From Deltaproteobacteria bacterium (GTDB lineage Bacteria > Desulfobacterota > GWC2-55-46 > S146-73), in assembly GCA_015492355.1 (NCBI GenBank), contig WGFF01000222.1, positions 1 to 25,150 of the forward strand: a stretch of DNA of 25,150 bases. Direction: 5' to 3'. The notes beneath the pieces are model-generated. The model had not been told where the DNA came from. It was given only the letters and a program-made list of their open reading frames with translations, and did not search any database. A program made the translations under genes and the position numbers. Of the stretch, positions 92 through 25,150 are shown in pieces. Each line of letters starts with the position of its first letter. Position 1 is the stretch's first letter.

Positions 92-296
92 GGGAAGTCT
101 GGGTATAGGCTTGTGCTGTAACCTCAAAGCTTCACCCTATGAGAACACGTGATAGGGAAGACCCCTGTTCATGGAGGGTTGTGGTGTAGATCGCTCGGTG
201 TGGTGATATCAAAAAAGCCTTTCCACCCTGGAATGATGAAATAAAAACCAGTGTGAGCGTATCCTATAAGATAAAAACAACTTCGCCGGAGTGAAG

Positions 297-2498: not shown

Positions 2499-3502
2499 CA
2501 GAGGTTGTCGGAAAGGTTTTTGTCTTTCTCCTTGTTGTTCTTGTAACATTCCTGTGGGTTGGACATGCCATAACCAGGCTCACAGGTGGTGAGAAGAAGG
2601 CTACAGGTAGTGTGGAGATAAGTCCAGAGGGTGGAGAGGCTATATTCTGGGGAAAGGGGAGGTGTTTTACCTGTCACAGTCTTGGTGAGAGGGGCAGTGC
2701 TGTTAGGTGTCCAAACCTCGGTGTATGGGGGGAGAAGTTCCCCTTACCCATAGGACTCAGGGCAGTGGAGCGGGCAAAGGAAAGGAGCGAGGAGACAGGT
2801 ATGGAGTATACAGCAACAGACTATCTCGTAGAATCCCTTGCCAATCCGAGTGCCTATATTGTGGAGGGTTACAAGGATGAGATGGCTGTTGTGTACGCAC
2901 CACCCATATCCCTTACCCTGGATGAGATAAAGGCTGTTGTGTCCTATCTTCAGAGTCAGGGTGGGGATGTGGATATAGAGGCACTGAACAACCCCACCGA
3001 GGTCTCCAAAAAGTTCTATGACAGGATAAAGGCAGCTTCTGCAGCAGGTGGAGGAGACCCCGGCAACGGAGAGATGGTGTTCTTTGAGAGTGCTGGATGT
3101 AACGAGTGTCATGCAATAAGAGGTGAGGGTGGAAGGATAGGTCCAGACCTGAGCGCCATCGCAAAGAAAGGGATAAAGTACATCTCAGAGTCCATACTCC
3201 AGCCTGCCGCATCCTTTACACCAGGGTATGAGACCTACACGGTCATTAAGAAGGACGGCAAGGAGATGTACGATGAGGAGGGAAGGAAGGTCTCGGGTGT
3301 AAAGGTAAAGGAGACAGATGAGTACGTGGAGATAGCACTCGATCCAGAGTCCATAGTAAGGATACAGAAGAGCGAGATAAAGGAACTCGTAATAGATAAG
3401 AACAAGAGCATAATGCCAGAAGAGCTCATAGAGGCACTTACTGTAAAGGAGTACCAGGACCTTCTTGCCTTCTTGCTCCTTCAGAAAGGTGAGAAGGACT
3501 GA
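2495..3502 (+). CDS. Membrane-anchored diheme cytochrome c
   Basis: N-terminal TM helix; CFTCH and CNECH motifs. The second domain (GPDLS...SILQP...GYE...SIMPE) resembles the heme-binding domain associated with membrane-bound dehydrogenases. ATGA overlap with the cydA-like stop codon. Confidence 0.9.
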   Translation: MTEVVGKVFVFLLVVLVTFLWVGHAITRLTGGEKKATGSVEISPEGGEAIFWGKGRCFTCHSLGERGSAVRCPNLGVWGEKFPLPIGLRAVERAKERSEETGMEYTATDYLVESLANPSAYIVEGYKDEMAVVYAPPISLTLDEIKAVVSYLQSQGGDVDIEALNNPTEVSKKFYDRIKAASAAGGGDPGNGEMVFFESAGCNECHAIRGEGGRIGPDLSAIAKKGIKYISESILQPAASFTPGYETYTVIKKDGKEMYDEEGRKVSGVKVKETDEYVEIALDPESIVRIQKSEIKELVIDKNKSIMPEELIEALTVKEYQDLLAFLLLQKGEKD

Positions 3503-3727
3503 TGCCCCAGCCTCAAAGACCGTGTGGTTTCACATCCTGAGGGGATCCCATCCCTTAAACACAAAAGACTTTTAAGGTGTGGACTAAGGGATGGACCTTG
3601 AGGATATAATCGGGAGCCTCTTAAAAGGGTTGACCTGGGCTCACCACTTGAGGGTTCAAAGGGGTGTGGCTTATCGGGGTTTCATCCATCCTGTCTTTCA
3701 TCCTCGGACAGGATGGGTGAGTAAGTA

Positions 3728-4735
3728 ATGGATAAAACACCACAGGAGGTAGAGGTGGGTAGATTCAGGATAGGATTTTTTTGGACCTCTCTTGTATCCT
3801 TCATCATCATCTATGGGCTCATAAAGTGGTCGATACCGTTCATATCAAGGAAGATAACAGGGATGCCCTTTCCACTGCCTGTGCCAGGTACATTGATGTT
3901 CATGTACATGGTACTGGCTGTGGTTGCCATGTTTCTCTACATCACCTTTTCTGAGGATGGGCTTGAGGATTTTCTCTATCCTGTAAGGAGGTTCCTTAAG
4001 GGCGAGTACGGTACTGTTCCGAGGGGTGTTGTGCTTGCTATAGTTCCCCTTGTTGTGGGATGGCAGATATACGATATAAGTATACCCAAGATAAGCGCCC
4101 CTGTCTCTTTGAGGATTCAGCACCCATCGAGTAACTTCCCCAAGAAGATGGAGGCACTTAAAAACCCGGTAGAGAACCCAACGGATGAGGAGATAGAGGA
4201 GTTCATAGAGCAGGCAAAAAGTGGCGAGGTGGGGTTCATCCCCCAGGTCATGGCTGATATAGAGAGGTGGAGGGAGGAGAACCCTGATGTACATATACTC
4301 TCCTTCATTCCCACAGAACCTGTAAAGAGGTTTCTGGAAGAACTTAGAACAGGCAGGGTGGACAGGGAGACCGCAAGGTCTGCCCTCAGGGAGAAGAATC
4401 TCTTTGAGGGCAGAGCCCTCTATGCCATGAACTGTAGACCCTGTCATGGTGACAGTGTGGGTGGGGATGGACCGATGGCAGACGGATTCAAACTCAGACC
4501 GATAAACTTCACTGATAACGGCACCATCGAGACCATAGTGGAGGGTTATACCTTCTGGAGGGTATCCAATGGGGGACCTGGTCTACCCATTGAGGCGACC
4601 CCATGGGATTCAGCCATGCCCATGTGGAGGCTCAATCTCACAGAGGAGGAGATGTGGAAGATAATCATGGCTGAGTACGACCTTGCGCAGAAGACCCCCA
4701 GGATACCTGAAAAACACGAGGCAGAAAAAGAATAA
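3728..4735 (+). CDS. Membrane-bound monoheme cytochrome c
   Basis: About three N-terminal hydrophobic helices, one CRPCH motif, and a distal SAMPMW segment supplying a likely Met axial ligand. Confidence 0.88.
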   Translation: MDKTPQEVEVGRFRIGFFWTSLVSFIIIYGLIKWSIPFISRKITGMPFPLPVPGTLMFMYMVLAVVAMFLYITFSEDGLEDFLYPVRRFLKGEYGTVPRGVVLAIVPLVVGWQIYDISIPKISAPVSLRIQHPSSNFPKKMEALKNPVENPTDEEIEEFIEQAKSGEVGFIPQVMADIERWREENPDVHILSFIPTEPVKRFLEELRTGRVDRETARSALREKNLFEGRALYAMNCRPCHGDSVGGDGPMADGFKLRPINFTDNGTIETIVEGYTFWRVSNGGPGLPIEATPWDSAMPMWRLNLTEEEMWKIIMAEYDLAQKTPRIPEKHEAEKE

Positions 4736-4757
4736 AGGACGAGGTGGATTCTGGAGT

Positions 4758-6383
4758 ATGAGGTATACGTCTACAACCACAAGGACGGTCATAACGGTAC
4801 TTTTCCTGTGCACTGTGGCGTACAACACATGGGCTGGTGACAAGCCTACAAAACCAAGGCCACCTGTAACAGAGGAGGCTATTGAGAAAGGGAGGGTGAT
4901 ATACTTCAAGAGGTGTAGTTTCTGTCACGGGCTCCTCGGTGACGGTAATGGTCCTGCTGCGGATTTTATGGACCCCAGGCCAAGGGATTTTACACTCGGT
5001 ATATTCAAGTTTCGCACCACCCAGAGCGGTGAGTTGCCAACGGATGAGGACCTTTTCAGGACCATAAGCAGGGGACTGCCTGGAACACCCATGCAGGGAT
5101 TCGACAACGAACTTATAAAGAACGGTCTCACAGAGGAAGAGAGGTGGCAGGTTATATACTATATCAAGACCCTTGCCCCGGAATTTTCCAATCCTGAATT
5201 CGACCCATCTGACAAGGTCGTGAGTCTGCCAGCTACAAGACCACCCTACAACGAGGAGACGATTGCCAAGGGTAGAGAGGTATTCAAGAAGGCAAAGTGC
5301 TGGGAGTGTCATGGTGAACTCGGAAGAGGGGATGGGCAGAAGGCATTCGACAGAACGGATGACTGGGGTTTCCCCATACGTATAAGGAACCTCACCCATT
5401 CATGGAAGATAAAGGGTGGAACAGATGTGGAGGACATATACATGCGTTTTTCCACAGGGATAAACGGCACCCCCATGCCATCCTTTGTGGATTCCCTTAC
5501 AGAAGAGGAGAGATGGTACCTCGCCAATTTCATAAAATCCCTTCAACATAGACCAACAGAACACACCGTCCTGAAGGTGAAATTCATCGAGGGGGAGATA
5601 CCCCTCGATCCAGAGAGCCCTGAATGGCAGGAGGCAGAACCAATGGATGTCCGTATGGCAGGACAGGTGATATTTGCGCCAAGGTGGCAGAATCCAAGTA
5701 TAGAACTCGTAACACTCAGGGCACTCTATAACGAAAAGGAGATAGGCTTCCTTGTGGAATGGGACGACCCGTTCAAGGACGTGGTACACATAGAGGACAG
5801 GGAGTTCGATGCCAGGGAGATAAGCAGAGTCGGTGCGTACAACTCCTATGTCAACCCCTTTGAGATGGTACCACGGGAGCTTGAGACCTTCAGGGACTCT
5901 GTTGCACTCCAGTTCCCTGTAAAGATACCAGAGGGCACAAAGAAGCCACACTTTTTGAGGGGAGACCCGAGTAATCCCGTAAATCTCTGGATATGGAAGT
6001 CCGACCTCCACAACCAGGGGAAGCCCGCTGTAGAGGAGGTGAATGCCAGGGGACCACAGCAACCTCTCAAGGTGCAGGACCCAGATAGCCAGCAGGTACA
6101 GTCAAAGGCTATCTGGAAGAAGGGACGGTGGAGTGTGGTAATGAAGAGACCCCTTATAACAGAGGACAGAAAGGATATACAGTTTGTGAGTGGAAGGTTC
6201 ATACCGATAGCTGTAAATGCGTGGGATGGGTCCAACGGTGAACACGATCTTATAATGAGCCTTTCATCATGGCACTATGTGTTCCTGGAGTCTGCCACAC
6301 CTGTTAAGGTGTATGTCTATGCCCTTCTGGGCGTGATACTGACCGGGCTCGGTGAGTTCTGGCTTGTAAGGAGGTATAGATAG
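4758..6383 (+). CDS. Diheme cytochrome c fused to an ethylbenzene-dehydrogenase-gamma/NxrC-type heme-b domain, C-terminal TM anchor
   Basis: Signal-peptide-like N-terminus; CSFCH and CWECH each followed by GT(P)M(P/Q); C-terminal domain with LYNEKEIGFLVEWDD, FRDSVALQFP, WIWKSD and NAWDGSNGE typical of EB_dh domains; terminal TM helix. GAGGTGG at 4741-4747 favours ATG 4758 over the track start 4683. Confidence 0.85.
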   Translation: MRYTSTTTRTVITVLFLCTVAYNTWAGDKPTKPRPPVTEEAIEKGRVIYFKRCSFCHGLLGDGNGPAADFMDPRPRDFTLGIFKFRTTQSGELPTDEDLFRTISRGLPGTPMQGFDNELIKNGLTEEERWQVIYYIKTLAPEFSNPEFDPSDKVVSLPATRPPYNEETIAKGREVFKKAKCWECHGELGRGDGQKAFDRTDDWGFPIRIRNLTHSWKIKGGTDVEDIYMRFSTGINGTPMPSFVDSLTEEERWYLANFIKSLQHRPTEHTVLKVKFIEGEIPLDPESPEWQEAEPMDVRMAGQVIFAPRWQNPSIELVTLRALYNEKEIGFLVEWDDPFKDVVHIEDREFDAREISRVGAYNSYVNPFEMVPRELETFRDSVALQFPVKIPEGTKKPHFLRGDPSNPVNLWIWKSDLHNQGKPAVEEVNARGPQQPLKVQDPDSQQVQSKAIWKKGRWSVVMKRPLITEDRKDIQFVSGRFIPIAVNAWDGSNGEHDLIMSLSSWHYVFLESATPVKVYVYALLGVILTGLGEFWLVRRYR

Positions 6384-6485: not shown

Positions 6486-7691
6486 ATGTACAAGAGGATA
6501 CTCGTTTGTTTGGACAATTCCAGATATTCCCGTTATGGAATGGATATAGCCATAAGGCTCGGTAGTTTTTTTAATGCGGAGGTGACCGGTCTGCACGTAT
6601 ATGCAGCACGACTGCATGAGTCGAGATTCATGGACCTTGAGACAGGTCTTCCAGAACGTTATCGATCAGAGGCTATTCTGAAAAGACAGCGTGACATACA
6701 CATGGACCTCATAGAAAAGGGACTGGGTCTCATATCGTGTTCCTACCTCGATGGGTTTAGAGTTATGGCTGAGAAAGAGGGTGTGGTCTGCAGGTGCAGG
6801 AGCAGGGAGGGGAGAAACTATGTGGAGATTATAAGGGAGATTGAGGAAGGTGATTATGACCTACTGGTTATGGGTGGGATGGGCCTTGGAGAGGTTGAGT
6901 ACAGCATTATCGGTGGTGTATGCGAACGTGTGGTAAGGCAGGTAAGAAAGGATGTACTCATTGTAAAGGAAGGCTTTACAGGTGGGAGGATAATGGTGGG
7001 AATAGATGGGAGTAGATACTCATACGGTGCCCTTATGTGTGCCATCGGGCTTAAGAAGGTATCTGGATGTGATGTTGAGGCTATAAGTGTGTACGATCCC
7101 TATTTCCATAAGATCGCATTCAGGAATATAGCAGAGGTATTGACAGACGATGCATCATCTGTATTCAGGTTCAAGGAACAGGAACAACTCCATGATGAGG
7201 TTATAGACAGAGGGCTTGCAAGCCTGTATCAGTCCTATCTCGATATAGCCCATAGTATCGCAGAAAGGCAAGGCGTGGAGATCAAAACGACCCTATTGGC
7301 TGGGAAGGCATTCAATGAAATGCTCAAGGCCGCCCAGAATACCTCCACTCCCTTCATCATAACTGTAGGGCGTTTTGGTCTCCACAAAACACCACTCTCA
7401 TCCATAGGCAATACAAGTGAAAATATCCTGAGGATGGCAACCACAAACGTCCTCATAACTAATCGTGAGTTCAACGAGGTGGTGGATAAAACAGATATGG
7501 CATTCGAGGATATGGAGTGGAGCGAAGGTGCTGTAAAACGGATAGAAAGGGTGCCTGATTTTGTAAGAGCCATGGTCAGAAAAACCATCATGGAGCTCGC
7601 CATGGAAAAGGGATGTAGAGAGATAACAGAGGATCTGGTGGATGAAGCCAGAAGGTATTTTACAAAACACAGGACGGTGAACAACAGATGA
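6486..7691 (+). CDS. Tandem universal stress protein (two USP domains) with C-terminal PCP_red-like helical domain
   Basis: YKRILVCLDNS...DLLVMGGMG...GGVCERVVR and IMVGIDGS...TVGRFG...GNTSENILR are two USP repeats. The tail MEWSEGAVKRIERVPDFVRAMVRKTIMELAMEKGCREITEDLVDEAR matches the BchB C-terminal (PCP_red) pattern. Confidence 0.88.
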   Translation: MYKRILVCLDNSRYSRYGMDIAIRLGSFFNAEVTGLHVYAARLHESRFMDLETGLPERYRSEAILKRQRDIHMDLIEKGLGLISCSYLDGFRVMAEKEGVVCRCRSREGRNYVEIIREIEEGDYDLLVMGGMGLGEVEYSIIGGVCERVVRQVRKDVLIVKEGFTGGRIMVGIDGSRYSYGALMCAIGLKKVSGCDVEAISVYDPYFHKIAFRNIAEVLTDDASSVFRFKEQEQLHDEVIDRGLASLYQSYLDIAHSIAERQGVEIKTTLLAGKAFNEMLKAAQNTSTPFIITVGRFGLHKTPLSSIGNTSENILRMATTNVLITNREFNEVVDKTDMAFEDMEWSEGAVKRIERVPDFVRAMVRKTIMELAMEKGCREITEDLVDEARRYFTKHRTVNNR

Positions 7692-9547: not shown

Positions 9548-10108
9548 ATGATGAGTGCAAGGAAGATGCTGATACTTGCGTCTGTGTTTGTTCTTTGTAT
9601 ACTTCTGAGCCCCTATGAGGTGAGGGCAGGAGAAAATCATCCATGTGGCAAGAATCCATGCGGGATGAAGGTGAAGAAGATAAGGAAGTATCCCTTGAAG
9701 GATATGGAAAAGGCGATGAAGGAGGCTGAAAGGCTGTGGAAGGATCCATCACTCGGTAGTGCTGGTGTATCGTGCTCCACATGCCATCCGAATGGCAGGG
9801 GGCTTAAACAAGAGCCCTTCCCTAAGTACATAAAGATGGCAGGTGATATACTCACACTCGATCAGATGATAAACTTCTGTATCACAAACCCCATGAAGGG
9901 TAAGCCCCTGAGCTGGAACCATCAGAAGCTCACAGCCCTTTCCCTCTATATAAAGATGAAAACACACGGGGTCCATCCCTGTGGTATGAAGCATCCCTGT
10001 GGCATGAAACATCCATGCGGGATGAAACACCCATGTGCTAAACATCCGTGTGCAAAGAATCCATGTGCGGGTAATCCATGTGCCATGAAGCATCCATGCG
10101 GGATGTAG
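9548..10108 (+). CDS. Periplasmic monoheme cytochrome c with probable His/Cys ligation and [H/N]PC repeat arms
   Basis: Signal peptide ending EVRA; CSTCH at 9773-9787; TLDQMINFCITNPMKG resembles the TsdA/SoxA segment carrying the axial Cys; two N-terminal and eight C-terminal [H/N]PC[G/A] units; AAGGAGG ribosome-binding site. Confidence 0.85.
   Translation: MMSARKMLILASVFVLCILLSPYEVRAGENHPCGKNPCGMKVKKIRKYPLKDMEKAMKEAERLWKDPSLGSAGVSCSTCHPNGRGLKQEPFPKYIKMAGDILTLDQMINFCITNPMKGKPLSWNHQKLTALSLYIKMKTHGVHPCGMKHPCGMKHPCGMKHPCAKHPCAKNPCAGNPCAMKHPCGM
9974..10105 (+). repeat. Coding tandem repeat, 8 imperfect 15-18 bp units encoding HPCGMK/HPCAK/NPCAG
   Basis: catccctgtggtatgaag, catccctgtggcatgaaa, catccatgcgggatgaaa and so on; units vary mostly at third codon positions. 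Confidence 0.9.
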
Positions 10109-11196
10109 TCCTTCTCTGGATGGTCTTATTCCTTGTGCCTGGTTATGTTGTGGCAGATGACATAACCCTTTTTGAATACTGGTCAAGACCCCTGAGCATA
10201 GGGGAAAAAACCCCCTATCCAGAGAACTGCGGTGAATGTCATAAAAGACAGTACACGGACTGGATAGGCTCACTACATCGAAGAAGCGTTGGTCCAGGGC
10301 TCCTGAGCCAGTTAAAGCCAGAAGAGTACCCTGATTATGCACTTTCCTGTTACTACTGCCATGCCCCAGCAGTGGAACAGAACGAAATGGTAAGACGGGG
10401 TGATGGGTATGTACGGAACGATTCATTCGACAGGAGGCTCAAGCATTCTGGAATATCCTGTGTCATCTGCCATGTAAGGAAGGGCAGGATATATGGTCCT
10501 GTACCTTCGGGTGATAGGGAAGGGGGACATCCCTTCACAGTAAAGGATTTTTTCTCAAGTGCCGAGTTCTGCAGGGTGTGTCATCAGCTGGATGGAGGAT
10601 ACGAGCTTAATGGCAAGGTGCTCGTCAACACATACAGGGAATGGAAGGAAAGTCCCTATGGAAAGAATAACATAACCTGTCAGCACTGTCACATGCCAGA
10701 TAGAAGGCACCTGTTCAGGGGTATACACGATCCAGAGATGGTAAGAAATGGTGTGGACTTTGAGGTAAGAGGAGGGAAGGAGAAGATAACACTCCTGATC
10801 AAGAATACCGGTGTGGGGCACAACTTTCCTACCTATGTAACACCCCTCGTTGTTGTAAGGGGTTTTGTGGTGGATGGCAGTGGAACGGTGGTTGGTGGCA
10901 CACTCAGGGAGTCGTTCGTGGGGAGAAAGGTTACACTGGACCTTACAGAGGAACTCTTCGATACCCGTATCCCCCCGGGTGGGGAGTTTGGCTTCGAATA
11001 TCCTGTTGATGGTGCAAAAGGAAAGAAGATAGTGCTTGAGGTATGGGTGTATCCAGACGAGTTCTACAACCGCTTCTTTCACTCCGCACTGGAGGATACC
11101 AACTCAGAGGACATAAAGGAGGCATTGGATATAACAGAGAATTCCTTTTATCTTCTTTTTAGAGAGGAGGTGCGTATCCCGGAAAGACCTATGTGA
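10096..11196 (+). CDS. Pentaheme cytochrome c (c554/c552-like multiheme domain plus beta-rich C-terminal domain)
   Basis: CGECH, CYYCH, CVICH, CRVCH, CQHCH; NTGVGHNFPT motif; signal peptide from ATG 10096 (MRDVVLLWMVLFLVPGYVVA), overlapping the upstream stop. Confidence 0.88.
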   Translation: MRDVVLLWMVLFLVPGYVVADDITLFEYWSRPLSIGEKTPYPENCGECHKRQYTDWIGSLHRRSVGPGLLSQLKPEEYPDYALSCYYCHAPAVEQNEMVRRGDGYVRNDSFDRRLKHSGISCVICHVRKGRIYGPVPSGDREGGHPFTVKDFFSSAEFCRVCHQLDGGYELNGKVLVNTYREWKESPYGKNNITCQHCHMPDRRHLFRGIHDPEMVRNGVDFEVRGGKEKITLLIKNTGVGHNFPTYVTPLVVVRGFVVDGSGTVVGGTLRESFVGRKVTLDLTEELFDTRIPPGGEFGFEYPVDGAKGKKIVLEVWVYPDEFYNRFFHSALEDTNSEDIKEALDITENSFYLLFREEVRIPERPM

Positions 11197-11942: not shown

Positions 11943-12644
11943 ATGGAAGCCTTTGTCAACAACATGGAAGTCTACATCGAGTCTTCCATGTTGTTATCCT
12001 TTATTTCTGCCTTTGTTGGAGGAGTGCTTACGAGTTTTACACCATGCGTATATCCCATGATACCCATTACAGCGAGCTTTGTATGCGCGGGTAATATAGG
12101 TGGTTCAAAACTCAGGGGATTTGTCCTCTCCCTTGCCTATGTGTTTGGCATGGCGGTTGTATATTCATCGCTCGGTATATTTGCAGCCCTTACAGGACGC
12201 TTTTTTGGTGAGGTGAGTACAAATCCCTATGCCTATTTCATAGTGGCAAATATTATCATAGCGTGCGGACTCGCCATGCTCGATGTAATCCCCATACCTG
12301 TCCTTGGTGGCAGGGCTGGTGCGACACAGGGGAGGGGAGTGGCAGGTGCTTTTCTTATAGGTATGGCATCTGGTTTTGTCGCTGCACCGTGTACAGCCCC
12401 TGTGCTTGGTGTGCTCCTTGCCTATGTGGCAACAACGCAGAATGTACCATTTGGAGGGGCACTGCTTTTCTTCTTCTCACTCGGGCTCGGTACACTCCTT
12501 GTTCTTGTGGGTACCTTTTCTGGTATACTCGCTACCCTTCCAAGGAGTGGAGAATGGATGTTGAGGCTCAAAAAGGTAATGGGATTCTTCATGATAGCAC
12601 TGGGTGAGTATTTTCTTATAAAGATGGGGGAATTGATAGTCTGA
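11943..12644 (+). CDS. ccdA: Cytochrome c biogenesis protein CcdA (DsbD transmembrane domain)
   Basis: Multi-TM protein with the two catalytic motifs SFTPCVYPMIP and AAPCTAP, plus LPRSGEWM. Confidence 0.92.
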   Translation: MEAFVNNMEVYIESSMLLSFISAFVGGVLTSFTPCVYPMIPITASFVCAGNIGGSKLRGFVLSLAYVFGMAVVYSSLGIFAALTGRFFGEVSTNPYAYFIVANIIIACGLAMLDVIPIPVLGGRAGATQGRGVAGAFLIGMASGFVAAPCTAPVLGVLLAYVATTQNVPFGGALLFFFSLGLGTLLVLVGTFSGILATLPRSGEWMLRLKKVMGFFMIALGEYFLIKMGELIV

Positions 12645-12667
12645 TAGTATGGATGATTGAGGAGGTT

Positions 12668-13162
12668 ATGGTGAGAAAGGGGACTTATACGAGGATTATA
12701 GTGTTATTTCTTTTGTTACTGCCTGTGACAGCAGGTGCAGTGGACGTGGAGGATAGTGCCCCAGATTTTACCCTCAAGACCATGGACAATGGGGAGATAA
12801 GATACAGCGATATCCGTGGCAGGGCGCCACTTTTTGTTGTCTTCTGGGCTACATGGTGTCCGGTATGTAAGGAGGAGATACCGAGGCTCAAGGAGATATA
12901 CTCCAAGTTCAAACCAAAGGGATTAGAATTTATCGCCATAAATGTAGGTGTTAACGATTCGGTCAATAAGGTACGGAGGTACATGAAAAAGTACGCCATC
13001 CATTACCCGGTTGCCTTTGATAAGGGCAGTACTGTTACACGTCTGTACGGTGTGCAGGGAACACCAACCATTGTAATTATAGACCGCAGGGGAACAGTCC
13101 GCTACCGTTCTGCAACGATCCCAGGAGATATTGCAGAACACCTGGATATGCTCATGCGGTAG
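12668..13162 (+). CDS. TlpA/ResA-family thiol-disulfide oxidoreductase
   Basis: Signal/anchor helix, APDFTL, FWATWCPVC active site, YGVQGTPT cis-Pro loop. GAGGAGG precedes ATG 12668 (track start 12653). Directly follows ccdA. Confidence 0.92.
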   Translation: MVRKGTYTRIIVLFLLLLPVTAGAVDVEDSAPDFTLKTMDNGEIRYSDIRGRAPLFVVFWATWCPVCKEEIPRLKEIYSKFKPKGLEFIAINVGVNDSVNKVRRYMKKYAIHYPVAFDKGSTVTRLYGVQGTPTIVIIDRRGTVRYRSATIPGDIAEHLDMLMR

Positions 13163-15989: not shown

Positions 15990-16088
15990 TTGAATTCGCG
16001 GTGAAGTATGGCTGATGCGATAGAGTGTATTTCATACTATATCAATGATTGCCGGTCCATCTTTCAGAAGAAAGGAGGTTTGATAGAG

Positions 16089-19000
16089 ATGATAAGGGAT
16101 AGAGAACCTGTTGGCATTATGTGTTTCATGTGGTTTTTGGTCGTTTCTTTTTTCTCAATTCTCATCTTTCTGCCGTACAGGGTGATGGCTAAAGAAGAGG
16201 TGGTAGTACATCCGCCTATACCACTTCTCGATGAGGATGGAGAGCATGTACTTACAAGTGGGCGTCCCTATTCATCGAGAAAAAGTTGTGGTAACAACGA
16301 GGGCAGTGGTTGCCACAACTATGACTCCATAACCCATGCCTATCACTTCGAGATGGGAAGGAACGAGGCAAGGGATTGGTTTGGAAAGGTACGCAAGCTA
16401 CCCCATCTCGTCTCTCCAGGCTATTTTGGTGGTTACGCCTGCATGGGAGGTAACAATCCAGAGGTACTCGCAAAGAAGGTCAATACAACCGAAGATAGGT
16501 TTGCGGATAGGGGTTCACCTGGATGGGTACTTCGTTGTAGTGGTTGTCACCCAGGTGGTGGATGGATGGAAAGGGATAGGGAAGGCATAAGGTACGACAG
16601 GAGAGACCCAACAACAATACCATACCTTGATGGTGACTACTACAACAGGGGTACAACAGATTCCAATGAACCAGCAGGGTCTGATGTTGTATCCCTGTGG
16701 GACTGGAGGAAAAGTGGCGTTGCAGAGGCAGATTGTCTTATGTGTCATGTGGATCTGAGCAGGCTCAAGAAGTTCGATCCACAACTTTTAGGTAGTGGTA
16801 CAAGCAGTGCCCTGGATCACTTCAGAACACTGAGGAGGACCTATCTTGCAGGGCAGGGTTTTTTCCGTTTTATGGGTACAGCCATACTGGAATTTATAAA
16901 CCTCAACACAACGGATGACAACTCAAAGGACGAGTCAGCTGTAACATTCAGACGTACCTTGAATGGAGAACACAATGTACATACCAGGACAAAACCCCTC
17001 TACAGCCTTGTACTGAACGATGACGGAGAGCCCATACTCGACTGGAATGAATCAGCCTTCGATGGAGATAGAAAGATAGCCATCCCTATGCTTCGTTTTC
17101 CCGATAATGATAACTGTATGCTGTGTCACAGAACAAGCCCTGGTAGAAGAGGGTTTTACGGCTTCGGAGATGATGCAGAACCTACCTATGACGAAGATGG
17201 CATCCTTATAGATGAAAACTACAAGTATGACATTCACAAGGGCAAACCCTGGACAGAGAACGGCGTTACAAAGAAGATAGACAACTGTAATGCTTGCCAT
17301 TCAAGGCTTTATTTCAGACCAACATGGCAGAGCACAGACCTTGATGCAGACCATAACATTCTCAAAGGAAACTCTGATATGGACTGTGCAAACTATCTCG
17401 ATTATAGACCCAATGCAAGATCGTGCGAGTACTGCCATAATGATGCACCAAATCCTGCCATCCCATCGGGTCATAGCGATATGCTCTCTGCCCATACTGA
17501 GAGATGGAGGGCAAAGGGGGACCTCAAGGGGTATCCAAAGGACTCACTCCCAAGGATAGTCAAGGCACATCTGGATTCCATCTCATGCCAGGCATGTCAT
17601 ATAACCGGCAAGAAGGACAGACGGGGTAAACCCATACAGATTATGTATCGCTACCGTATAGGTCCAAAGGGTGGGCTACAGATTATACCCTACAATCCCA
17701 GGATACGGTACTACTGGAAGGACAGAAACAGCGGATACATACTGAACAGGACAGAACGAAACAGTGTGTTCATGCTTGCAAGGGATGATGAGGGTAAAGA
17801 TATAGGTGTAATAGTGGATCCAGTAAGTGGAGAGTCCTTTGGTGTCAGTGTATCCGCAAGGATGTCTCACGGTTCGTGGCGTTTTGGTGAACCAGACAGT
17901 TACGAAGGATACATCGCCCTTAAAAAGGCATACGACAGACTCCTTATGAAAAAGGGTTTTAATAACCCCGATTGTGTAATGGTCTGGATAGAATCCAATG
18001 AATATGTGATGTCTCATAACACAAGGAGTGCCACTGCATCACTTCAGTGTGCGGATTGCCATAGTAAGAAGCAGGACGGCTCATTTAGTGCCATTCTCTC
18101 ACCAGATGGCCTCCTCGGGACAGGGAATGTCAAGACCGTTACTACCCTGCCCACAAAAAGACTCGTTGAGGAGGGCATAGTTGAACTCGGAATGCCGTAC
18201 ATGAAGATAGATGCGGATGGAGTGGTTACGGAGAATGTATCCGACATACTCTATGCAACAAAGATAAATCCGTCTCTGTCGATACTGAATTCAGCGGTGC
18301 TAAATACAATAGCCCTTCCACCAAGGCTCCTTACACAAACCGAGGCTTTATCAGAGGCTAATATACACGATCATGAGGATATGCAGATGGTAAAGAGCCT
18401 TCTTTCCACAGAAAAGATATTCATCTTCAGATCCAATTACGGTAGCGACGAGGTAAGAAAGGTTGTAATCCTTGCAAGTGCAGATACATACACAAGGTTG
18501 TTATTTCCAACCTATACCGCAGAGATATCACTCGCAGATGAGAGGATAGTTAAGGATCTATCCAATCTTGGTATAGGCAACGTGGTTGGTGATGTTTTTT
18601 CGATGAGGGCATTCAATGCCTCTGGAGAGGAGATTAGCAGTTTCCCCGGTGATGGAGTGGTTGTAAAGATACCTTACAGAGGAACCAGTATCAGCAAAGA
18701 AAGGATAAAGATAATAACATCGCAGGATGGGACAGACTGGAATCTACTTGATCCAGAAAGGATACTCTCCATAAGAGTGGGTGATAACGGAACAGAAGGT
18801 TATGTCCTCTTCCGTACCGAGCACTTCAGTTACTATGGCATTGTGGATACATCCAGGTACATATCAGGCAGTGACCTTGTAGACTCGGTGCAGACCAAGG
18901 AAGGTGGTTGCTTCATTGCAACTGCTGTATACGGCTCATACAGTGATCCCCATGTGAAGGTACTAAGGAAGTTCAGGGACAGGGTGCTTCTCTCTTTTGA

Positions 19001-19235
19001 TGTGGGTAGAAGACTCGTTGAATTTTACTATACCTATAGCCCTTCATTTGCCACATGGCTTAAGGATAGTACAGTTGTAAAGGGTCTTGTAAGAGGAGCA
19101 CTCCTACCGGTCTACTGGCTGGCATACTTCATGGTGGGGATTACCCTTACAGAGCAGATACTGATAGCCACACCTGTGATATCTGCCGGTGTGATCTATA
19201 TCGTCATGAGAAGAAGGTCTGAGAAGACCGCATAG
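16089..19235 (+). CDS. Large exported octaheme cytochrome c (octaheme tetrathionate reductase-like heme pattern) with beta-rich surface domain and CFI-box-CTERM
   Basis: Seven CxxCH (CSGCH, CLMCH, CMLCH, CNACH, CEYCH, CQACH, CADCH) plus CGNNEGSGCH (CX7CH). C-terminal GGCFIATAVYGS...VLRKFRD...YYxYSP followed by hydrophobic helices. AAAGGAGG at 16071-16078 favours ATG 16089 (track start 16008). Confidence 0.82.
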   Translation: MIRDREPVGIMCFMWFLVVSFFSILIFLPYRVMAKEEVVVHPPIPLLDEDGEHVLTSGRPYSSRKSCGNNEGSGCHNYDSITHAYHFEMGRNEARDWFGKVRKLPHLVSPGYFGGYACMGGNNPEVLAKKVNTTEDRFADRGSPGWVLRCSGCHPGGGWMERDREGIRYDRRDPTTIPYLDGDYYNRGTTDSNEPAGSDVVSLWDWRKSGVAEADCLMCHVDLSRLKKFDPQLLGSGTSSALDHFRTLRRTYLAGQGFFRFMGTAILEFINLNTTDDNSKDESAVTFRRTLNGEHNVHTRTKPLYSLVLNDDGEPILDWNESAFDGDRKIAIPMLRFPDNDNCMLCHRTSPGRRGFYGFGDDAEPTYDEDGILIDENYKYDIHKGKPWTENGVTKKIDNCNACHSRLYFRPTWQSTDLDADHNILKGNSDMDCANYLDYRPNARSCEYCHNDAPNPAIPSGHSDMLSAHTERWRAKGDLKGYPKDSLPRIVKAHLDSISCQACHITGKKDRRGKPIQIMYRYRIGPKGGLQIIPYNPRIRYYWKDRNSGYILNRTERNSVFMLARDDEGKDIGVIVDPVSGESFGVSVSARMSHGSWRFGEPDSYEGYIALKKAYDRLLMKKGFNNPDCVMVWIESNEYVMSHNTRSATASLQCADCHSKKQDGSFSAILSPDGLLGTGNVKTVTTLPTKRLVEEGIVELGMPYMKIDADGVVTENVSDILYATKINPSLSILNSAVLNTIALPPRLLTQTEALSEANIHDHEDMQMVKSLLSTEKIFIFRSNYGSDEVRKVVILASADTYTRLLFPTYTAEISLADERIVKDLSNLGIGNVVGDVFSMRAFNASGEEISSFPGDGVVVKIPYRGTSISKERIKIITSQDGTDWNLLDPERILSIRVGDNGTEGYVLFRTEHFSYYGIVDTSRYISGSDLVDSVQTKEGGCFIATAVYGSYSDPHVKVLRKFRDRVLLSFDVGRRLVEFYYTYSPSFATWLKDSTVVKGLVRGALLPVYWLAYFMVGITLTEQILIATPVISAGVIYIVMRRRSEKTA

Positions 19236-19302: not shown

Positions 19303-19530
19303 ATGGAGGGGATAAGGCAGAAGGGTTTTAAGATACTTGAGAGATTGATCCCATGGATCGCTGGAGGAGGGATGTCAGCAGGCAGTGGATTGTTTTCGAT
19401 CTACTGCACTGTCCCGAGAGCAGGCAGTTGTTCCTTCTGCGGGGGCTGTGCGGTTGCGATCTTTTCCCTTGCAGGATGGGCTATTCTCAAGGGTGGATTG
19501 ACCAGAAGGTGCTACAGAGAAGACAGGTGA
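19303..19530 (+). CDS. Small (75 aa) membrane protein with C-X7-C-X2-C-X2-C motif
   Basis: AAGGAGG at 19291-19297 precedes ATG 19303; two hydrophobic segments flank CTVPRAGSCSFCGGC; GTGA overlap with the porin start. Confidence 0.65.
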   Translation: MEGIRQKGFKILERLIPWIAGGGMSAGSGLFSIYCTVPRAGSCSFCGGCAVAIFSLAGWAILKGGLTRRCYREDR

Positions 19531-20759
19531 GATACGGTCTGGTATTTTTCTACACGGTGGTATTCTTTTTCTGGCTCTTAAGTGATGTGTACGCAGGTAC
19601 AGAGATAAGACTCGATACCCTCTTTATGATGGACAATCGTTTTTTTAAAAAGAGGGTGATAATAGAGGAATGGATAGATATTACATACACGAACAGGAGA
19701 AAGGATATATCAAGCAACTTAAGTGTTGCTGGAAGGCTATGTGAAGATGGATGGTATGACAGTATCTATAAATTGTATGTAGAAGGAGGTTTCAACCTTA
19801 TAGATACATCTATAAGGTTTGGAAGGTTCGAGCATATAGGTCCATCAGGCTATCTCATACTCGATGGTGCCTCAATAAAGACCACAATGGATGGTATCCA
19901 TGTGGAGTTCTATGGTGGCAGTACCAGAAGGATAGAGGACTACATAGAAGCAGTGGATACCAGATGGATAGGAGGAATCGATCTTTTCTTCTCAGGAAGG
20001 GAGAGATATATCCCAGTATGGCTCAATACTGTAGAAGGTAGGATAGGATATTACAGAATAGATCCATTCGATACAGGAGAGGATGGATTTACATGGAGCG
20101 GATTTATATCTGGTGGGAGGGACGATGAAGGTGGATGGTTTGTGGTGTCTGAAGGCAATGTTGTTGCAGAGGGTATGAGAGCCGAAAGGGTATCTATGGA
20201 ATTGGGGCTTTCTCTTTTTAAGAAGGGAGAGATAAGGACAATCTATGAGATGTACAACCCTGACTCTGGCTATCTCACCCTTCGGGATAGATTCTACCTC
20301 CGTTACACTAAGGGATACGAGAGGACCTACGGAGTGGACATACATTATCCATTGAAAAGCCTTACATTCTACTGGAAAGGAAGAAGGGGATTTCACGGTA
20401 TCGGTAAAGACGGATACTCTACCCTTGCTGGCTTGGAGAAGGGCTTACGGGATGGCATGCGTATGGGTGCTGAGGCAGTTTACATCAAGATGGAAGAGGA
20501 TACATCATTCAGTATGTTTACCAAGTCCAGGATACCACTTTCTGAGCGGAGTACCATCAAGGTGGATGGAATGTGGCAGTTACAGAGAAAAGAGACAACA
20601 GGCAAAAACATAGGTGCGGGATTTTATTCCACCCTCGAGATGATGTTACAGGGGGATATCTTTGTTTCCATATATGCCATGCATGTATGGAACGATAATC
20701 TGGATGACGAATACATGGCAGGTGTACGGGTTACGAAATTTTTGAACTATTCTTATTGA
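19527..20759 (+). CDS. Outer-membrane beta-barrel porin of a porin-cytochrome complex
   Basis: GTG 19527 gives a signal peptide ending DVYA. Amphipathic beta-strand pattern throughout, aromatic C-terminus (EYMAGVRVTKFLNYSY), RFGRF motif, and it lies immediately upstream of three multiheme cytochromes. Confidence 0.75.
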   Translation: MRYGLVFFYTVVFFFWLLSDVYAGTEIRLDTLFMMDNRFFKKRVIIEEWIDITYTNRRKDISSNLSVAGRLCEDGWYDSIYKLYVEGGFNLIDTSIRFGRFEHIGPSGYLILDGASIKTTMDGIHVEFYGGSTRRIEDYIEAVDTRWIGGIDLFFSGRERYIPVWLNTVEGRIGYYRIDPFDTGEDGFTWSGFISGGRDDEGGWFVVSEGNVVAEGMRAERVSMELGLSLFKKGEIRTIYEMYNPDSGYLTLRDRFYLRYTKGYERTYGVDIHYPLKSLTFYWKGRRGFHGIGKDGYSTLAGLEKGLRDGMRMGAEAVYIKMEEDTSFSMFTKSRIPLSERSTIKVDGMWQLQRKETTGKNIGAGFYSTLEMMLQGDIFVSIYAMHVWNDNLDDEYMAGVRVTKFLNYSY

Positions 20760-23194: not shown

Positions 23195-25150
23195 ATGAAC
23201 ATACCAAAGTGGCAGAAGATACGTTACGGGCTTATAGGGTTATCCTGTGTACTCTTCTTTGCTCCACTTTCTTTTATACCTGGTCTATTCGGTAGCAGGG
23301 ATTTCTGCGGCATTCTGTGTATGAGGCGCTTTTATCTTTATTGGCCCGGTATGAGTGTAGAGGACCTCACCTTTCAGGTGATGGTATCCATAGGCGGTGT
23401 AATACTACTCTGTGTGATACTGGTTGTAACATTCCTTTTTGGACGCCTGTGGTGCGGGTATGTCTGTCCTGTAGGAGGTTTCCCTGAACTTGTGAGCCGT
23501 ATGCTCGGTGAAAGGATAAAGATAGATTACCGTGTGCTTCCGCAGGCTCCCATCAGGTACGGTTATCTCGGCTTTTATCTTGTAACGATGCCAGTGCTCG
23601 GGATAAGCGCATGCACACTGTGTAACTTTATTGTCCTTCCGCGTATTTTCGATGCATTAAGTGGGGGGAGGGAAGGTATCATGTATCTACTTACCTCTGT
23701 AGGTCTTACAAACCTTGCCCTTGTATTTCTTCTTGGTTTCTTTGCACACAAGGGAAGGGCATACTGTTCGTTTCTGTGTCCCATCGGTGCAATAGATGGC
23801 ATCGTTAACAGGATAGGCGCATCTTTCGGTTTTACAAGACGTATCCGTGTTTCCATGAGTAGATGCAATGGATGCGGAGTATGTGCAATCACCTGTATGT
23901 GTGGAGCGATAAGTATCCACAGAGACAAGGCTGTGGTGGATCAACTCTCGTGCATGTCCTGTCATGAATGTGTGGATGTGTGTGCTGCAGATGCAATAGA
24001 ATATCTTGTAATACCACCGGCTGGAAGAACACAGAGATCCCCCCGCTGTAGGGAGATAGAACCTGTATGGACAGGTGTATATAGCAAAACAGGCATAAAC
24101 GTAAAAAGGATATTCCTCATGTCCCTGACAGCAGTGGTTATTGCCTTCATATTCGTTACCCAGGTCTATGCAGGGAAGAGGAGAACCGATCCAGAAGGAT
24201 GCCTTACATGCCATGCTATCAAGGGGCTTCAATATATAGATAATAACGGACTTTTAAGAGATGCCACCATAGATGAATCCCACTACTATTCATCCATACA
24301 CGGAGGCATTCCTTGCAGGGATTGTCATGCCGGGATTGAACGCTTTCCCCATGATGCCAAAAAGGGAGGGGTGGATTGTGCGAACCGATGCCACATAAAC
24401 GAACCATCGAGCAACGCAAGATATTCACACAAGGATATAGTGGATGAATTCAAGGATTCCGTACACGGTAATGGTGCTACCAGCGGGTTTACCGGTAGAA
24501 ATCGCCTTGATGAGACCGTTTCACTTCTTCCATCATGTCGTAGATGTCACAGTAATACCCTGTATGTGGATGATAAGAGAATAGATGAGTTCAAAGAGGT
24601 TTTTAAAGACTGCGAGCGTGAATGTGGCAGATGCCACAGGGGAAGGGCATGGCGTTCACAATCGGCAGGACATATTATCAGAAGGCTTCTCGGTGCAAGA
24701 CGGACAAAGAAGGAAGAGATAGCACTATGTAACGGATGTCATGGCGATGTGGAGATGATGAAGGAGGTGGAACTCGAGGATAAAAAGACGGGAAAGAAAA
24801 AGAGAGCCGATGAGAGGTTTATCATGGCTGGTACAAGTTACTTACTTACCCTCCACGGGAGGCTCCTTGAAAGGAATAACCAGTACGGTACATCCTGTAT
24901 GGACTGTCACGCACCACAGGATTACAGGCACAGAATACTCCGCTCAGACAATCCCCTTTCATCGACCCACATAAAAAATCTCCCACACACCTGTGGTAGC
25001 GTATGTCATGACTATGCGGACATACCCCTCAACACCGCTTTTTTAACTACTGATATGCACCCACTGGATCTCACCCCCCTTGATACGAAGGATATATTTA
25101 GAGCCATGTGGAGAGAACCATCAGGATGGTTTGTATCTGTACTTATACTC
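23195..25150 (+). CDS. NapH/MauN-like 4Fe-4S membrane protein fused to a CbcL-like multiheme cytochrome c domain (3' partial; absent from ORF track)
   Basis: Manual translation: open from ATG 23195 for 652 codons to the window edge with no stop. Contains GRLWCGYVCP, RAYCSFLCP, CNGCGVCAITC and CMSCHECVDVC, a TM helix, then CLTCH, CRDCH, CANRCH, CRRCH, CGRCH, CNGCH, CMDCH, CGSVCH with S(I/V)HG spacers; a new hydrophobic stretch starts at the edge. Confidence 0.85.
   Translation, partial: MNIPKWQKIRYGLIGLSCVLFFAPLSFIPGLFGSRDFCGILCMRRFYLYWPGMSVEDLTFQVMVSIGGVILLCVILVVTFLFGRLWCGYVCPVGGFPELVSRMLGERIKIDYRVLPQAPIRYGYLGFYLVTMPVLGISACTLCNFIVLPRIFDALSGGREGIMYLLTSVGLTNLALVFLLGFFAHKGRAYCSFLCPIGAIDGIVNRIGASFGFTRRIRVSMSRCNGCGVCAITCMCGAISIHRDKAVVDQLSCMSCHECVDVCAADAIEYLVIPPAGRTQRSPRCREIEPVWTGVYSKTGINVKRIFLMSLTAVVIAFIFVTQVYAGKRRTDPEGCLTCHAIKGLQYIDNNGLLRDATIDESHYYSSIHGGIPCRDCHAGIERFPHDAKKGGVDCANRCHINEPSSNARYSHKDIVDEFKDSVHGNGATSGFTGRNRLDETVSLLPSCRRCHSNTLYVDDKRIDEFKEVFKDCERECGRCHRGRAWRSQSAGHIIRRLLGARRTKKEEIALCNGCHGDVEMMKEVELEDKKTGKKKRADERFIMAGTSYLLTLHGRLLERNNQYGTSCMDCHAPQDYRHRILRSDNPLSSTHIKNLPHTCGSVCHDYADIPLNTAFLTTDMHPLDLTPLDTKDIFRAMWREPSGWFVSVLIL

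Follow-up and report, generated by a model that had tools for sequence, protein, structure and literature searches.

Of all the steps of extracellular electron transfer, the passage of electrons out of or into the cytoplasmic membrane is understood least outside Shewanella and Geobacter. The known inner-membrane modules belong to the NapC/NirT type (CymA, ImcH) or to the cytochrome-b type (CbcL, CbcBA). CcoG, a membrane polyferredoxin, is a cupric reductase. In Geobacter CbcL (GSU0274), nine bis-His CXXCH hemes occupy 250 residues at the N-terminus (PMC9129911). The membrane segments of NapH have been proposed to form the quinol-oxidising domain that feeds NapG (PMC5928378), and the extracytoplasmic domain of NosR and PceC (RdhC) serves a periplasmic redox partner (PMC5928378; bioRxiv 10.1101/2021.01.07.425746). 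In Methylococcus capsulatus Bath, the MCA0424–MCA0433 operon is induced by Cu limitation, with a predicted FUR box, and its two 917-aa cytochromes, MCA0424 and MCA0426, were detected at the cell surface; the locus was treated as cytochromes plus a porin, leaving its NapH-like gene undiscussed (PMC4831470). M. capsulatus also produces an anodic current and reduces Fe oxide, and does so more strongly in Cu-limited cells (PMC6281684). Our literature search found no description of a NapH-like/octaheme fusion.

The window analysed here, a stretch of 25,150 nucleotides, is an entire contig and carries such a fusion at its 3′ end (Table 1). The initial annotation had pointed to a 652-codon open frame with ferredoxin and heme motifs that runs off the window edge, and our ORF and motif scans confirmed it. 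The frame is open at its 3′ end because the end of the contig is reached first.

Table 1. Coordinates of the fusion gene, its predicted domains and the genes upstream of it in the window.
Feature	Position	Strand	Basis or comparison
Multiheme cytochrome, 1075 aa, 7 CxxCH	16008..19235	+	43-44% identity to two 917-aa Methylococcus cytochromes
468-aa protein, no Pfam match	19353..20759	+	Methylococcus operon comparison (PMC4831470)
7-heme c7-like cytochrome, 199 aa	20764..21363	+	41% identity to Methylococcus counterpart
8-heme cytochrome, lipoprotein-like signal, 322 aa	21342..22310	+	44% identity to Methylococcus counterpart
6-heme cytochrome, 305 aa	22274..23191	+	43% identity to gene 7 of Methylococcus operon
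Whole ORF, NapH-like polyferredoxin + octaheme cytochrome	23195..25150	+	ATG start, 652 codons, no stop
Fer4_5/NapH-like membrane module, aa 1-200	23195..23794	+	Pfam PF12801 4e-16; E. coli NapH alignment
Cytoplasmic 2x[4Fe-4S] ferredoxin domain, aa 215-270	23837..24004	+	CxxCxxCxxxC at aa 224, 253
Basic cytoplasmic linker, aa 271-304	24005..24106	+	Near-invariant R281, P290, W292 (alignment)
TM5, junction helix to periplasm, aa 305-325	24107..24169	+	Hydropathy, alignment, split loci
Periplasmic octaheme domain, aa 326-642	24170..25120	+	6 CxxCH + 2 CxxxCH; 8 invariant candidate distal His
Start of TM6, aa 643-652, cut by contig end	25121..25150	+	Hydropathy, full-length homologs

A scripted motif scan of the fusion ORF located CxxxCP at aa 87 and 191, a further CxxxC at aa 38, the two ferredoxin motifs, six CxxCH (aa 336, 374, 448, 477, 512 and 568), two CxxxCH (aa 395 and 600) and S(I/V)HG at aa 367 and 422, and the heme domain ends in CMDCH...H.I....NPLSS...TCGSVCH. 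A seventh CxxCH (CMSCH, aa 253) was rejected as a heme site, as it is part of the second ferredoxin motif. Hydropathy placed four TM helices at about residues 9–34, 60–85, 124–150 and 161–185, followed by TM5 and by a TM6 that starts at about residue 643. The resulting topology agrees with the positive-inside rule, which we count in favour of an inner-membrane entry function. The membrane module bears the two CxxxCP sites on its cytoplasmic side (C87/C91/P92 and C191/C195/P196) and two subfamily-specific pairs, C38xxxC42 in periplasmic loop 1 and C140xxC143 in TM3; these four cysteines are kept in 195 of 195 subfamily members and are missing from E. coli NapH. Among 39 homologs with 48–60% identity, the eight heme motifs, the eight ferredoxin Cys and both CxxxCP are invariant, together with eight further His residues (369, 386, 412, 424, 493, 554, 579 and 622). 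These extra His, along with the lack of a conserved Met, suggest bis-His ligation at all of the octaheme sites. Judged by its sequence, the ORF holds a set of motifs that is far beyond chance. The hydrophobic stretch at the window edge, which according to the initial annotation might begin a further membrane domain, is a membrane segment consisting of one helix (TM6), but not a new membrane domain. What comes after TM6 varies among relatives: a short basic tail in some, TM7 and a triheme module in others, and a CysJ-like reductase in Methylococcus.

The description of the N-terminal half as NapH-like was borne out by its alignment with E. coli NapH (b2204; 24% identity over about 256 aa, E 3e-11), in which both CxxxCP and both ferredoxin motifs are common. 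It has the NapH/MauN layout of four TM helices, two CxxxCP and two C-terminal [4Fe-4S] motifs. The scores against the NapH/MauN model TIGR02163 (71.2 bits, cut-off 213) and the NapH equivalog model NF007013 (61.1 bits, cut-off 234) are below cut-off, and we count them against a quinol-fed entry subunit. The NosR family was matched only at E 3e-7 and the CcoG family at E 9e-4, and in sequence and profile searches of the PDB with the fusion only the ferredoxin part was matched, with no solved Fer4_5 membrane domain. The nearest relatives outside the cluster form a sister group with 40–45% identity and the same eight Cys. All three of their loci examined are TonB-dependent receptor/ExbB/ExbD/TonB operons, one with a nearby YHS metal-binding gene and one with a nearby FtrD-like gene, and this setting is likewise counted against quinol-fed entry. 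Elsewhere in the genome of the window, on contig C221, there is a NapG/NapH-like pair of canonical size.

Over its whole length, the octaheme domain can be aligned with octahemes that form the N-terminal part of fusions with a PF01292 cytochrome b; identity is 28–33%, all eight heme sites are colinear and seven distal His are invariant. It shares the features of this superfamily, namely CxxxCH at site 3, a variable CX2-4CH at site 8 and conserved distal His, and a profile search retrieved 4757 relatives. The octaheme–PF01292 fusions are common to many other bacteria, and in the same genome a paralogous octaheme gene adjoins a cytochrome-b-like gene. The AF2 model of the heme domain reached a pLDDT of 80 and that of the full-length protein a poor mean pLDDT of 59, both models lacking cofactor geometry. 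Foldseek with the two models found no significant match in the PDB, and VIA-align gave weak matches to HAO, NrfA, ONR and MtrA, the best of which (HAO, Z 5.2) is under the noise guide of about 8. The octaheme domain gave no evidence for the CxxCK or the Tyr cross-link of the HAO/NrfA/ONR enzymes, and among the AlphaFold DB clusters the matches were confined to family members and unnamed multihemes.

The fusion gene belongs to a cluster with the order large surface multiheme cytochrome, small ORF, β-barrel, three periplasmic multiheme cytochromes, NapH-like, octaheme, triheme module and NHL-multiheme protein. Of these, the window includes the first seven before the contig stops, the fusion gene being the seventh, and the stop codon of the 6-heme cytochrome lies 3 nt ahead of the fusion-gene ATG. 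This synteny was seen at six loci, among them deltaproteobacterial, symbiont, methanotroph and Methylococcus ones; in MCA0424–0433, we counted 58 CxxCH in eight cytochromes, reproducing the published heme number. The neighbours contain no Fe-S or molybdopterin gene and are all c-type cytochromes. A NapG-like partner is absent from the cluster and the heme domain stands in its place, as the initial annotation had proposed. Its idea of a complete single-chain unit had to be abandoned, since in relatives the triheme C-module, fused or separate, and the NHL-multiheme protein always follow. A CcdA/thioredoxin pair for cytochrome maturation is near the cluster, which, like the topology, we count in favour of the entry function, and the cluster loci compared hold no other conserved membrane redox gene. 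The missing 3′ end was sought on contigs C335, C242 and C204 of the same genome and was not found there; all that C335 and C242 offer are stand-alone paralogs of the TM-TM-triheme type, each with an NHL protein behind it, and C204 is unrelated to the fusion gene. Of the clusters already described, three were candidates for the same system but were rejected: Uet of Tenderiales, which has cupredoxin and triheme c7 proteins and no NapH-like gene, PCC3 of Gallionellaceae, and the Methylobacter bioanode cluster, which is of the four-gene MtoAB type.

On balance, and with modest confidence, we lean towards the ORF being the inner-membrane subunit through which electrons from quinol enter a trans-envelope multiheme conduit. 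This reading is supported by the conserved synteny across deltaproteobacterial, symbiont, methanotroph and Methylococcus loci, by the homology of the N-terminal half to NapH, by the fusion of the same octaheme elsewhere to PF01292 cytochrome b, a quinone-interacting module, and by the orthology to an operon that is induced by Cu limitation and has surface products, in an organism with Cu-limited anodic current. On the model proposed for NapGH, the NapH-like module would take electrons from membrane quinol and pass them on, via heme 1, to an octaheme wire of its own, which would replace the separate NapG. TM5 leads the chain out to the periplasmic octaheme, and TM6 re-anchors it in the membrane. 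From the wire, electrons could reach the outer-membrane porin-cytochrome by way of the periplasmic cytochromes, allowing a hydrothermal-vent aerobe or microaerophile to dump electrons on extracellular acceptors, in a flow that is possibly reversible. The four extra Cys lie near the periplasmic face and probably make up a further redox centre, which would bridge the membrane module and the hemes. A quinol:cytochrome c oxidoreductase role, as initially annotated, is a plausible one. We know of no quinone site in any NapH-like protein, which we count against quinol as the donor. It is hard to see what the cytoplasmic di-cluster domain would do in a path from quinol to the periplasm; this, too, is counted against it, as is the flavodoxin–FAD–NAD(P)H module on the octaheme ortholog of Methylococcus. 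The truncation of the gene at its 3′ end and the structure models, which gave no cofactor geometry, also weigh against the entry-subunit reading.

These observations leave some room for a different, more tentative reading, in which the protein is a quinone-independent transmembrane reductase. Electrons would enter from the cytoplasm at the di-[4Fe-4S] domain and cross the membrane through centres formed by the eight conserved Cys to the octaheme, possibly so that Cu and Fe outside the cell or in the periplasm can be mobilised by reduction and taken up, rather than for respiration. The electrons would be supplied by a protein of the ferredoxin or flavodoxin type or, where a CysJ-like module is fused, by NAD(P)H. 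Directly after the split NapH-like gene, Methylococcus and several metagenomic lineages have an octaheme–TM–flavodoxin/FAD/NAD(P)H fusion, and we found four independent sequences of this octaheme–CysJ type, one of them on a 147-kb contig. However, only about two to three of some 20 resolved split loci have the CysJ extension, it is absent from all 51 fused loci, including the clade of the window, and the cluster lacks a conserved gene for a cytoplasmic donor. The universal retention of C38, C42, C140 and C143 and their absence from E. coli NapH are in keeping with membrane centres, although periplasm-facing Fe-S centres would be unusual for a Sec-inserted protein, and the at most eight Fe reported for NosR make clusters at the CxxxCP positions less likely (PMC5928378). 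A link to metal acquisition is suggested by the TonB/ExbB/ExbD operons of the sister group, as well as by the Cu regulation and predicted FUR box of the Methylococcus operon and the ExbBD genes that come next after it (PMC4831470). It is conceivable, if rather doubtful, that the NapH-like half is a transmembrane Fe-S relay built from the eight Cys and the di-cluster domain, and not a quinol dehydrogenase, carrying electrons from a cytoplasmic reductant to the periplasmic hemes and on to the cell surface, with NAD(P)H as the donor through the fused CysJ-like module in Methylococcus and soluble ferredoxin-type donors elsewhere. Such a relay would be a bacterial Fe-S/heme-c analogue of the eukaryotic NADPH-driven ferric/cupric reductases, and it would serve extracellular Cu/Fe mobilisation, or an electron overflow that bypasses the quinone pool.

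It is improbable that the NapH-like half mainly maintains the assembly or the proper redox state of the periplasmic cytochromes, as NosR does for NosZ or as in CxxxCP-dependent NapG docking. The bulk of the electrons would then come from bc1, cytochrome b or other quinol oxidases, and variants of NosR and NapH indeed alter partner activation and membrane association (PMC5928378). The genome offers a candidate source in its second octaheme beside the cytochrome-b-like gene, and it also holds the NapG/NapH-like pair. Nevertheless, the strict synteny and the repeated covalent fusion to an eight-heme wire favour a direct in-line path, and no other conserved membrane redox gene is available within the cluster.

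The fusion itself is genuine and conserved. In a public run of a hydrothermal vent metagenome, a 2902-nt contig that was assembled separately covers positions 23800–25150 with one substitution and zero indels, and a second sample matches the window at ≥99% up to 24101; the independent assembly spans the junction at 24000–24200, where the initial annotation had asked for a lost stop codon to be excluded. That contig extends about 620 nt beyond the window, and a look-up of the exact product found nothing. Over 100 protein clusters match the query along its entire length (44–59% identity), and a relative is encoded in about 175 species-level genomes. The fused frame is present in 51 of about 80 species-level loci, so that about two thirds of the species have the fused form rather than always two genes as had been considered; the remaining third, mostly methanotrophs, have the split form of separate adjacent genes. 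At the split loci, the NapH-like gene ends in a TM5-type helix, and the cytochrome gene begins with its own signal peptide or anchor. The occurrence of fused, split and triple-fused forms among the relatives indicates that the halves work together. In a quick FastTree tree with long-branch warnings, the closest relatives of the window protein are all fused, and at least six fusion or fission events are indicated. The full-length clusters, the number of genomes, the invariant cofactor ligands and the independent contig show the fusion to be natural and under selection. An assembly or sequencing error that deleted a stop codon between two neighbouring genes, to which the separate versions in other lineages could lend some credit, is effectively refuted by the indel-free contig, the second sample, the fused frame kept across loci and clusters, and the uniformly fused closest relatives, leaving it a negligible probability.

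The family is widespread among giant sulfur bacteria, Sedimenticola, the symbionts of lucinids and tubeworms, and marine methanotrophs; to our knowledge, these carriers are not usually considered electroactive. If electrons do enter from quinol, it would add an iron-sulfur, NapH-type module to the known inner-membrane entry modules. Since the orthologous Cu-regulated operon belongs to the genetically tractable M. capsulatus Bath, whose current has already been measured, the roles of the NapH-like and octaheme proteins are directly testable, and the result could clarify the role of CxxxCP modules in NapH, NosR and RdhC.

Compared with the known systems, the window protein shares with E. coli NapH the four TM helices, a CxxxCP after TM2 and TM4, and the C-terminal cytoplasmic CxxCxxCxxxC(P) pair. 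In contrast to NapH, it has neither a nap gene context nor NapG, and it adds the four invariant Cys, a TM helix and the octaheme domain. With NosR and PceC (RdhC), it has in common that a four-TM/CxxxCP core of the Fer4_5 type is covalently attached to a cofactor domain outside the cytoplasm, but theirs is N-terminal and contains FMN, whereas that of the window protein is C-terminal and contains eight c-type hemes. The polyferredoxins of the FtrD/CcoG type share the Fer4_5 membrane architecture without a fused cytochrome. The label CbcL-like, given to the heme half in the initial annotation, stands for the layout, a membrane quinone-pool module covalently tied to a bis-His multiheme domain that feeds periplasmic cytochromes, and for a remote homology through the octaheme–PF01292 fusions. 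With these unnamed fusions, rather than with GSU0274, we compared the domain, and they share the CxxxCH at site 3 and the ending ...CxDCHAP..H.I....D..S..H..N...TC...CH. The label does not extend to the cytochrome b, the N-terminal placement or the nine hemes: the CbcL type has a HydC/FdnI-type diheme cytochrome b (PF01292), whereas the window protein has a Fe-S, NapH-like Fer4_5 module and no PF01292 match; the heme domain precedes the membrane module in CbcL and follows it here; and eight hemes are spread over about 317 aa, as compared to nine over 250 aa in CbcL (PMC9129911). The closest counterpart is the MCA0424–MCA0433 operon, orthologous gene for gene at 41–54% identity (23% for the porin-like protein). 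The N-terminal half of the window protein corresponds to the Methylococcus NapH-like gene, which by position is MCA0430, and the C-terminal half to residues 1–355 encoded by the gene that follows, MCA0431; in Methylococcus the halves are separate, and the octaheme subunit bears a cytoplasmic CysJ-like diflavin reductase.

The fusion gene occupies the end of the window, which is an entire contig of a 2.07-Mb MAG (85% complete, hydrothermal vent sample). Its ATG lies 3 nt downstream of the stop codon of the preceding cytochrome gene. A motif script recovered every motif claimed in the initial annotation (see the table), while an additional CxxCH (CMSCH, residue 253) is part of a ferredoxin motif and does not represent a heme site.

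Features of the fusion protein and of other genes in the window (nt, window positions; aa, fusion protein residues)
Feature	Position	Strand	Remark
Fusion ORF	nt 23195-25150	+	652 codons open from ATG, exits contig end
CxxxCP motifs	aa 87 and 191		motif script
CxxCxxCxxxC motifs	aa 224 and 253		motif script
N-terminal hydrophobic helices			four, script
Fifth helix (TM5)	aa 305-325		script
Heme motifs	aa 336 to 605		6 CxxCH + 2 CxxxCH, script
S(I/V)HG	aa 367 and 422		script
Ending of heme domain			CMDCH...NPLSS...TCGSVCH, script
Hydrophobic run	from aa 643		script
Cytochrome bd-like gene and three cytochrome c genes	nt 291-6383		735-aa protein, sole match N-terminal cytochrome bd subunit I (E 4.5e-10); downstream, three c-type cytochromes, the third with an EB_dh (ethylbenzene-dehydrogenase-like heme) domain
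Universal stress protein fusion	nt 6486-7691		universal stress protein domain fused to C-terminal PCP_red (protochlorophyllide reductase 57 kD subunit) domain
SoxA/TsdA-type cytochrome c domain protein	nt 9548-10108		followed by next row
c554/MtrC-like multiheme protein	nt 10078-11196
CcdA/DsbD-type membrane protein and AhpC/TSA-thioredoxin-like protein	nt 11943-13162		adjoining

The in-frame fusion of the NapH-like and octaheme halves is genuine. In a word-indexed search, more than 100 protein clusters covered the full query at 44-59% identity, and a genome scan revealed relatives in 175 species-level genomes. A 39-sequence alignment shows no variation in the eight heme motifs, eight further His, the eight ferredoxin Cys or either CxxxCP motif. 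A 2902-nt contig, assembled independently from a public run, covers 23800-25150 with one substitution (T566A) and no indels, and a sample from another study matches the window at ≥99% as far as 24101. Given this independent contig across the junction and the match in a second sample, an assembly artefact is excluded for practical purposes. The substitution (A in the window, G in the contigs of two public runs, position 24890) replaces Thr566 by Ala, two residues ahead of the seventh heme motif. Since Ala is the family consensus at this residue, Thr566Ala is a strain-level variant.

Homologs encoded always as two genes would have spoken against the fusion, but about 51 of about 80 species-level loci carry the two parts as a single gene. 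Two adjacent genes are found in about 20-29 loci, mostly of Methylococcales and Methylothermaceae, where the NapH-like protein keeps a TM5-like C-terminal helix and the cytochrome bears a signal peptide. The occurrence of the halves in nature both as one gene and as two neighbours shows that they work together. The surrounding cluster has a constant order: a multiheme cytochrome of ~900-1075 aa, a small ORF, a 420-494-aa protein without Pfam match, three small multiheme cytochromes, the NapH-like and octaheme unit, a triheme module, and finally a ~810-930-aa protein with NHL repeats and multiple hemes. The CcdA/DsbD-type and AhpC/TSA pair elsewhere in the window probably serves the reduction of apocytochrome CxxCH sites. 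At loci L010 and L104, too, the homologous clusters are flanked by an AhpC/TSA-like gene.

The hydrophobic stretch at the window edge, proposed earlier as a possible start of a further membrane domain, is a single helix (TM6) in full-length homologs. Three forms follow it: most commonly a short basic tail (~705-760 aa in total); a basic loop, TM7 and a three-heme module (~960-990 aa); or, in Methylococcus, a cytoplasmic CysJ-like reductase. The closest relatives (P0001-P0006) have the second form, and in a quick tree the N-half of the window protein clusters with this three-part clade. The gene's own 3' end was sought and not recovered, the public contig continuing for at least ~620 nt beyond the window.

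By sequence, the N-half is NapH-like and not NapH itself. Its alignment with E. coli NapH extends over ~256 residues at 24% identity (E 3e-11), with both CxxxCP and both ferredoxin motifs shared. Its scores fall far short of the curated NapH cut-offs, and no nap context surrounds the gene. Four further Cys, C38xxxC42 in the first periplasmic loop and C140xxC143 in TM3, are invariant in all 195 subfamily members, whereas E. coli NapH lacks equivalents. No function has been assigned to the CxxxCP motifs that occur in NapH, NosR and RdhC (PMC5928378), and PDB sequence and profile searches found no solved structure of the Fer4_5 membrane domain. A canonical-size NapG/NapH-like pair is located elsewhere in the genome. 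There, contig C221 (L098:498-3218) encodes a separate NapGH-type unit: first a NapG-like protein, which has four Fe-S motifs and a twin-arginine-like leader, then a 308-aa NapH-like protein, a 208-aa membrane-anchored protein and another polyferredoxin. The nearest NapH-like relatives outside the cluster (L106, L111 and the P0382 locus; 271-295 aa) retain the same eight Cys and sit within TonB-dependent receptor/ExbB/ExbD/TonB operons, with a YHS-domain gene near one and an FtrD-like gene near one.

For the octaheme domain, a 65-sequence alignment led to a usable model (pLDDT 80, pTM 0.76), which has no significant match among solved structures. An exhaustive profile search yielded 4757 related representatives. 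Among the best 150, about 60 consist of a signal peptide and 7-22 hemes followed by several C-terminal TM helices (up to six), and all nine tested proteins of this kind contain a PF01292 cytochrome b. Four PF01292-type octaheme members are colinear with the window's heme domain at 28-33% identity, matching at 8/8 heme sites, including the unusual CxxxCH at site 3, with seven distal His conserved. Thus, one periplasmic module is joined to two different membrane modules in nature. The genome also encodes a stand-alone octaheme paralog (34% identity, E 2e-47) adjoining a cytochrome-b-like gene. On its contig, C131 (L108:26-2659), a 344-aa multiheme cytochrome, the 373-aa octaheme protein and the start of the cytochrome-b-like gene (weak PF01292/DUF4405) are found. 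Contig C242 (L004) carries a cytochrome-b-like C-terminal part, a 366-aa TM-TM-triheme protein and an NHL-repeat protein, the latter two nearly duplicated on C335 (L005). C131 and C242 may be adjoining pieces of one locus, and the genes of the three contigs are a paralogous system within the same genome.

The split NapH-like gene is present in cultured Methylococcus and Methylomonas. The Methylococcus locus, an eleven-gene array with eight cytochromes (CxxCH 7+7+7+8+6+6+3+14 = 58), is precisely the 'MCA0424 system' that Larsen and Karlsen reported from M. capsulatus Bath. This system is induced by copper limitation and has a predicted FUR box; MCA0424 and MCA0426 were detected at the cell surface, MCA0427 is a beta-barrel protein, and the function is without biochemical evidence (PMC4831470). 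Anodic current and Fe oxide reduction have been measured in M. capsulatus, both greater in Cu-limited cells (PMC6281684). All cluster proteins of the window have orthologs in this locus at 41-54% identity (beta-barrel candidate, 23%). The NapH-like gene, MCA0430 by position, is the operon's sole non-cytochrome redox gene and is not discussed in PMC4831470; our literature search found no paper on it or on the fusion. The cluster was noticed earlier but never dissected. Uet, PCC3 and the Methylobacter MtoAB-type cluster were rejected as different systems. In Methylococcus and a few MAGs (L104:11103-14021, L103:4625-7582, L094), the octaheme subunit, 972-1007 aa long, extends past TM6 into a CysJ-like part composed of flavodoxin, FAD-binding and NAD(P)H-binding domains. 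In one transcriptome paper, this gene is called merely a 'multiheme c-type cytochrome'.

The great majority of family members come from Gammaproteobacteria: Chromatiales, Thiotrichales (giant sulfur bacteria among them), Methylococcales, Sedimenticola, Thiodiazotropha and tubeworm symbionts. A few matches lie elsewhere. Of 40 relatives from the same order as the window's genome, only one carries a member, which suggests horizontal spread. As the genome encodes several heme-copper oxidases, the fusion system sits in an oxygen-respiring organism.

Domain order, ligand conservation and operon partners are established, and hydropathy and the positive-inside rule place the Fe-S clusters inside and the hemes outside. 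Electrons would pass through the fusion protein between the inner membrane and periplasmic cytochromes. Quinol is the favoured source, because of the NapGH precedent, the interchangeability with cytochrome b and the analogy to CymA, ImcH and CbcL. In the main rival, electrons would enter on the cytoplasmic side, via the di-cluster domain, and cross the membrane by a cysteine-based relay. This rival draws on the reductase module at the cytoplasmic end of Methylococcus-type octaheme subunits (four independent sequences), the gene neighbourhoods (TonB, YHS, FtrD-like) in which the sister NapH-like group lies (all three loci examined) and the copper and FUR regulation of the Methylococcus operon. 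However, only a minority carries the CysJ extension, and no fused form does.

The initial annotation's observation is borne out, and its interpretation is partly supported. Its term 'CbcL-like' is supported for the layout and, by comparison with the cytochrome-b-fused octahemes, for remote homology; Geobacter CbcL itself has nine hemes in residues 30-279 (PMC9129911). The fusion is a new domain architecture that unites two known kinds, namely fusions of NapH-like proteins with periplasmic redox domains and fusions of a membrane module with a multiheme wire.
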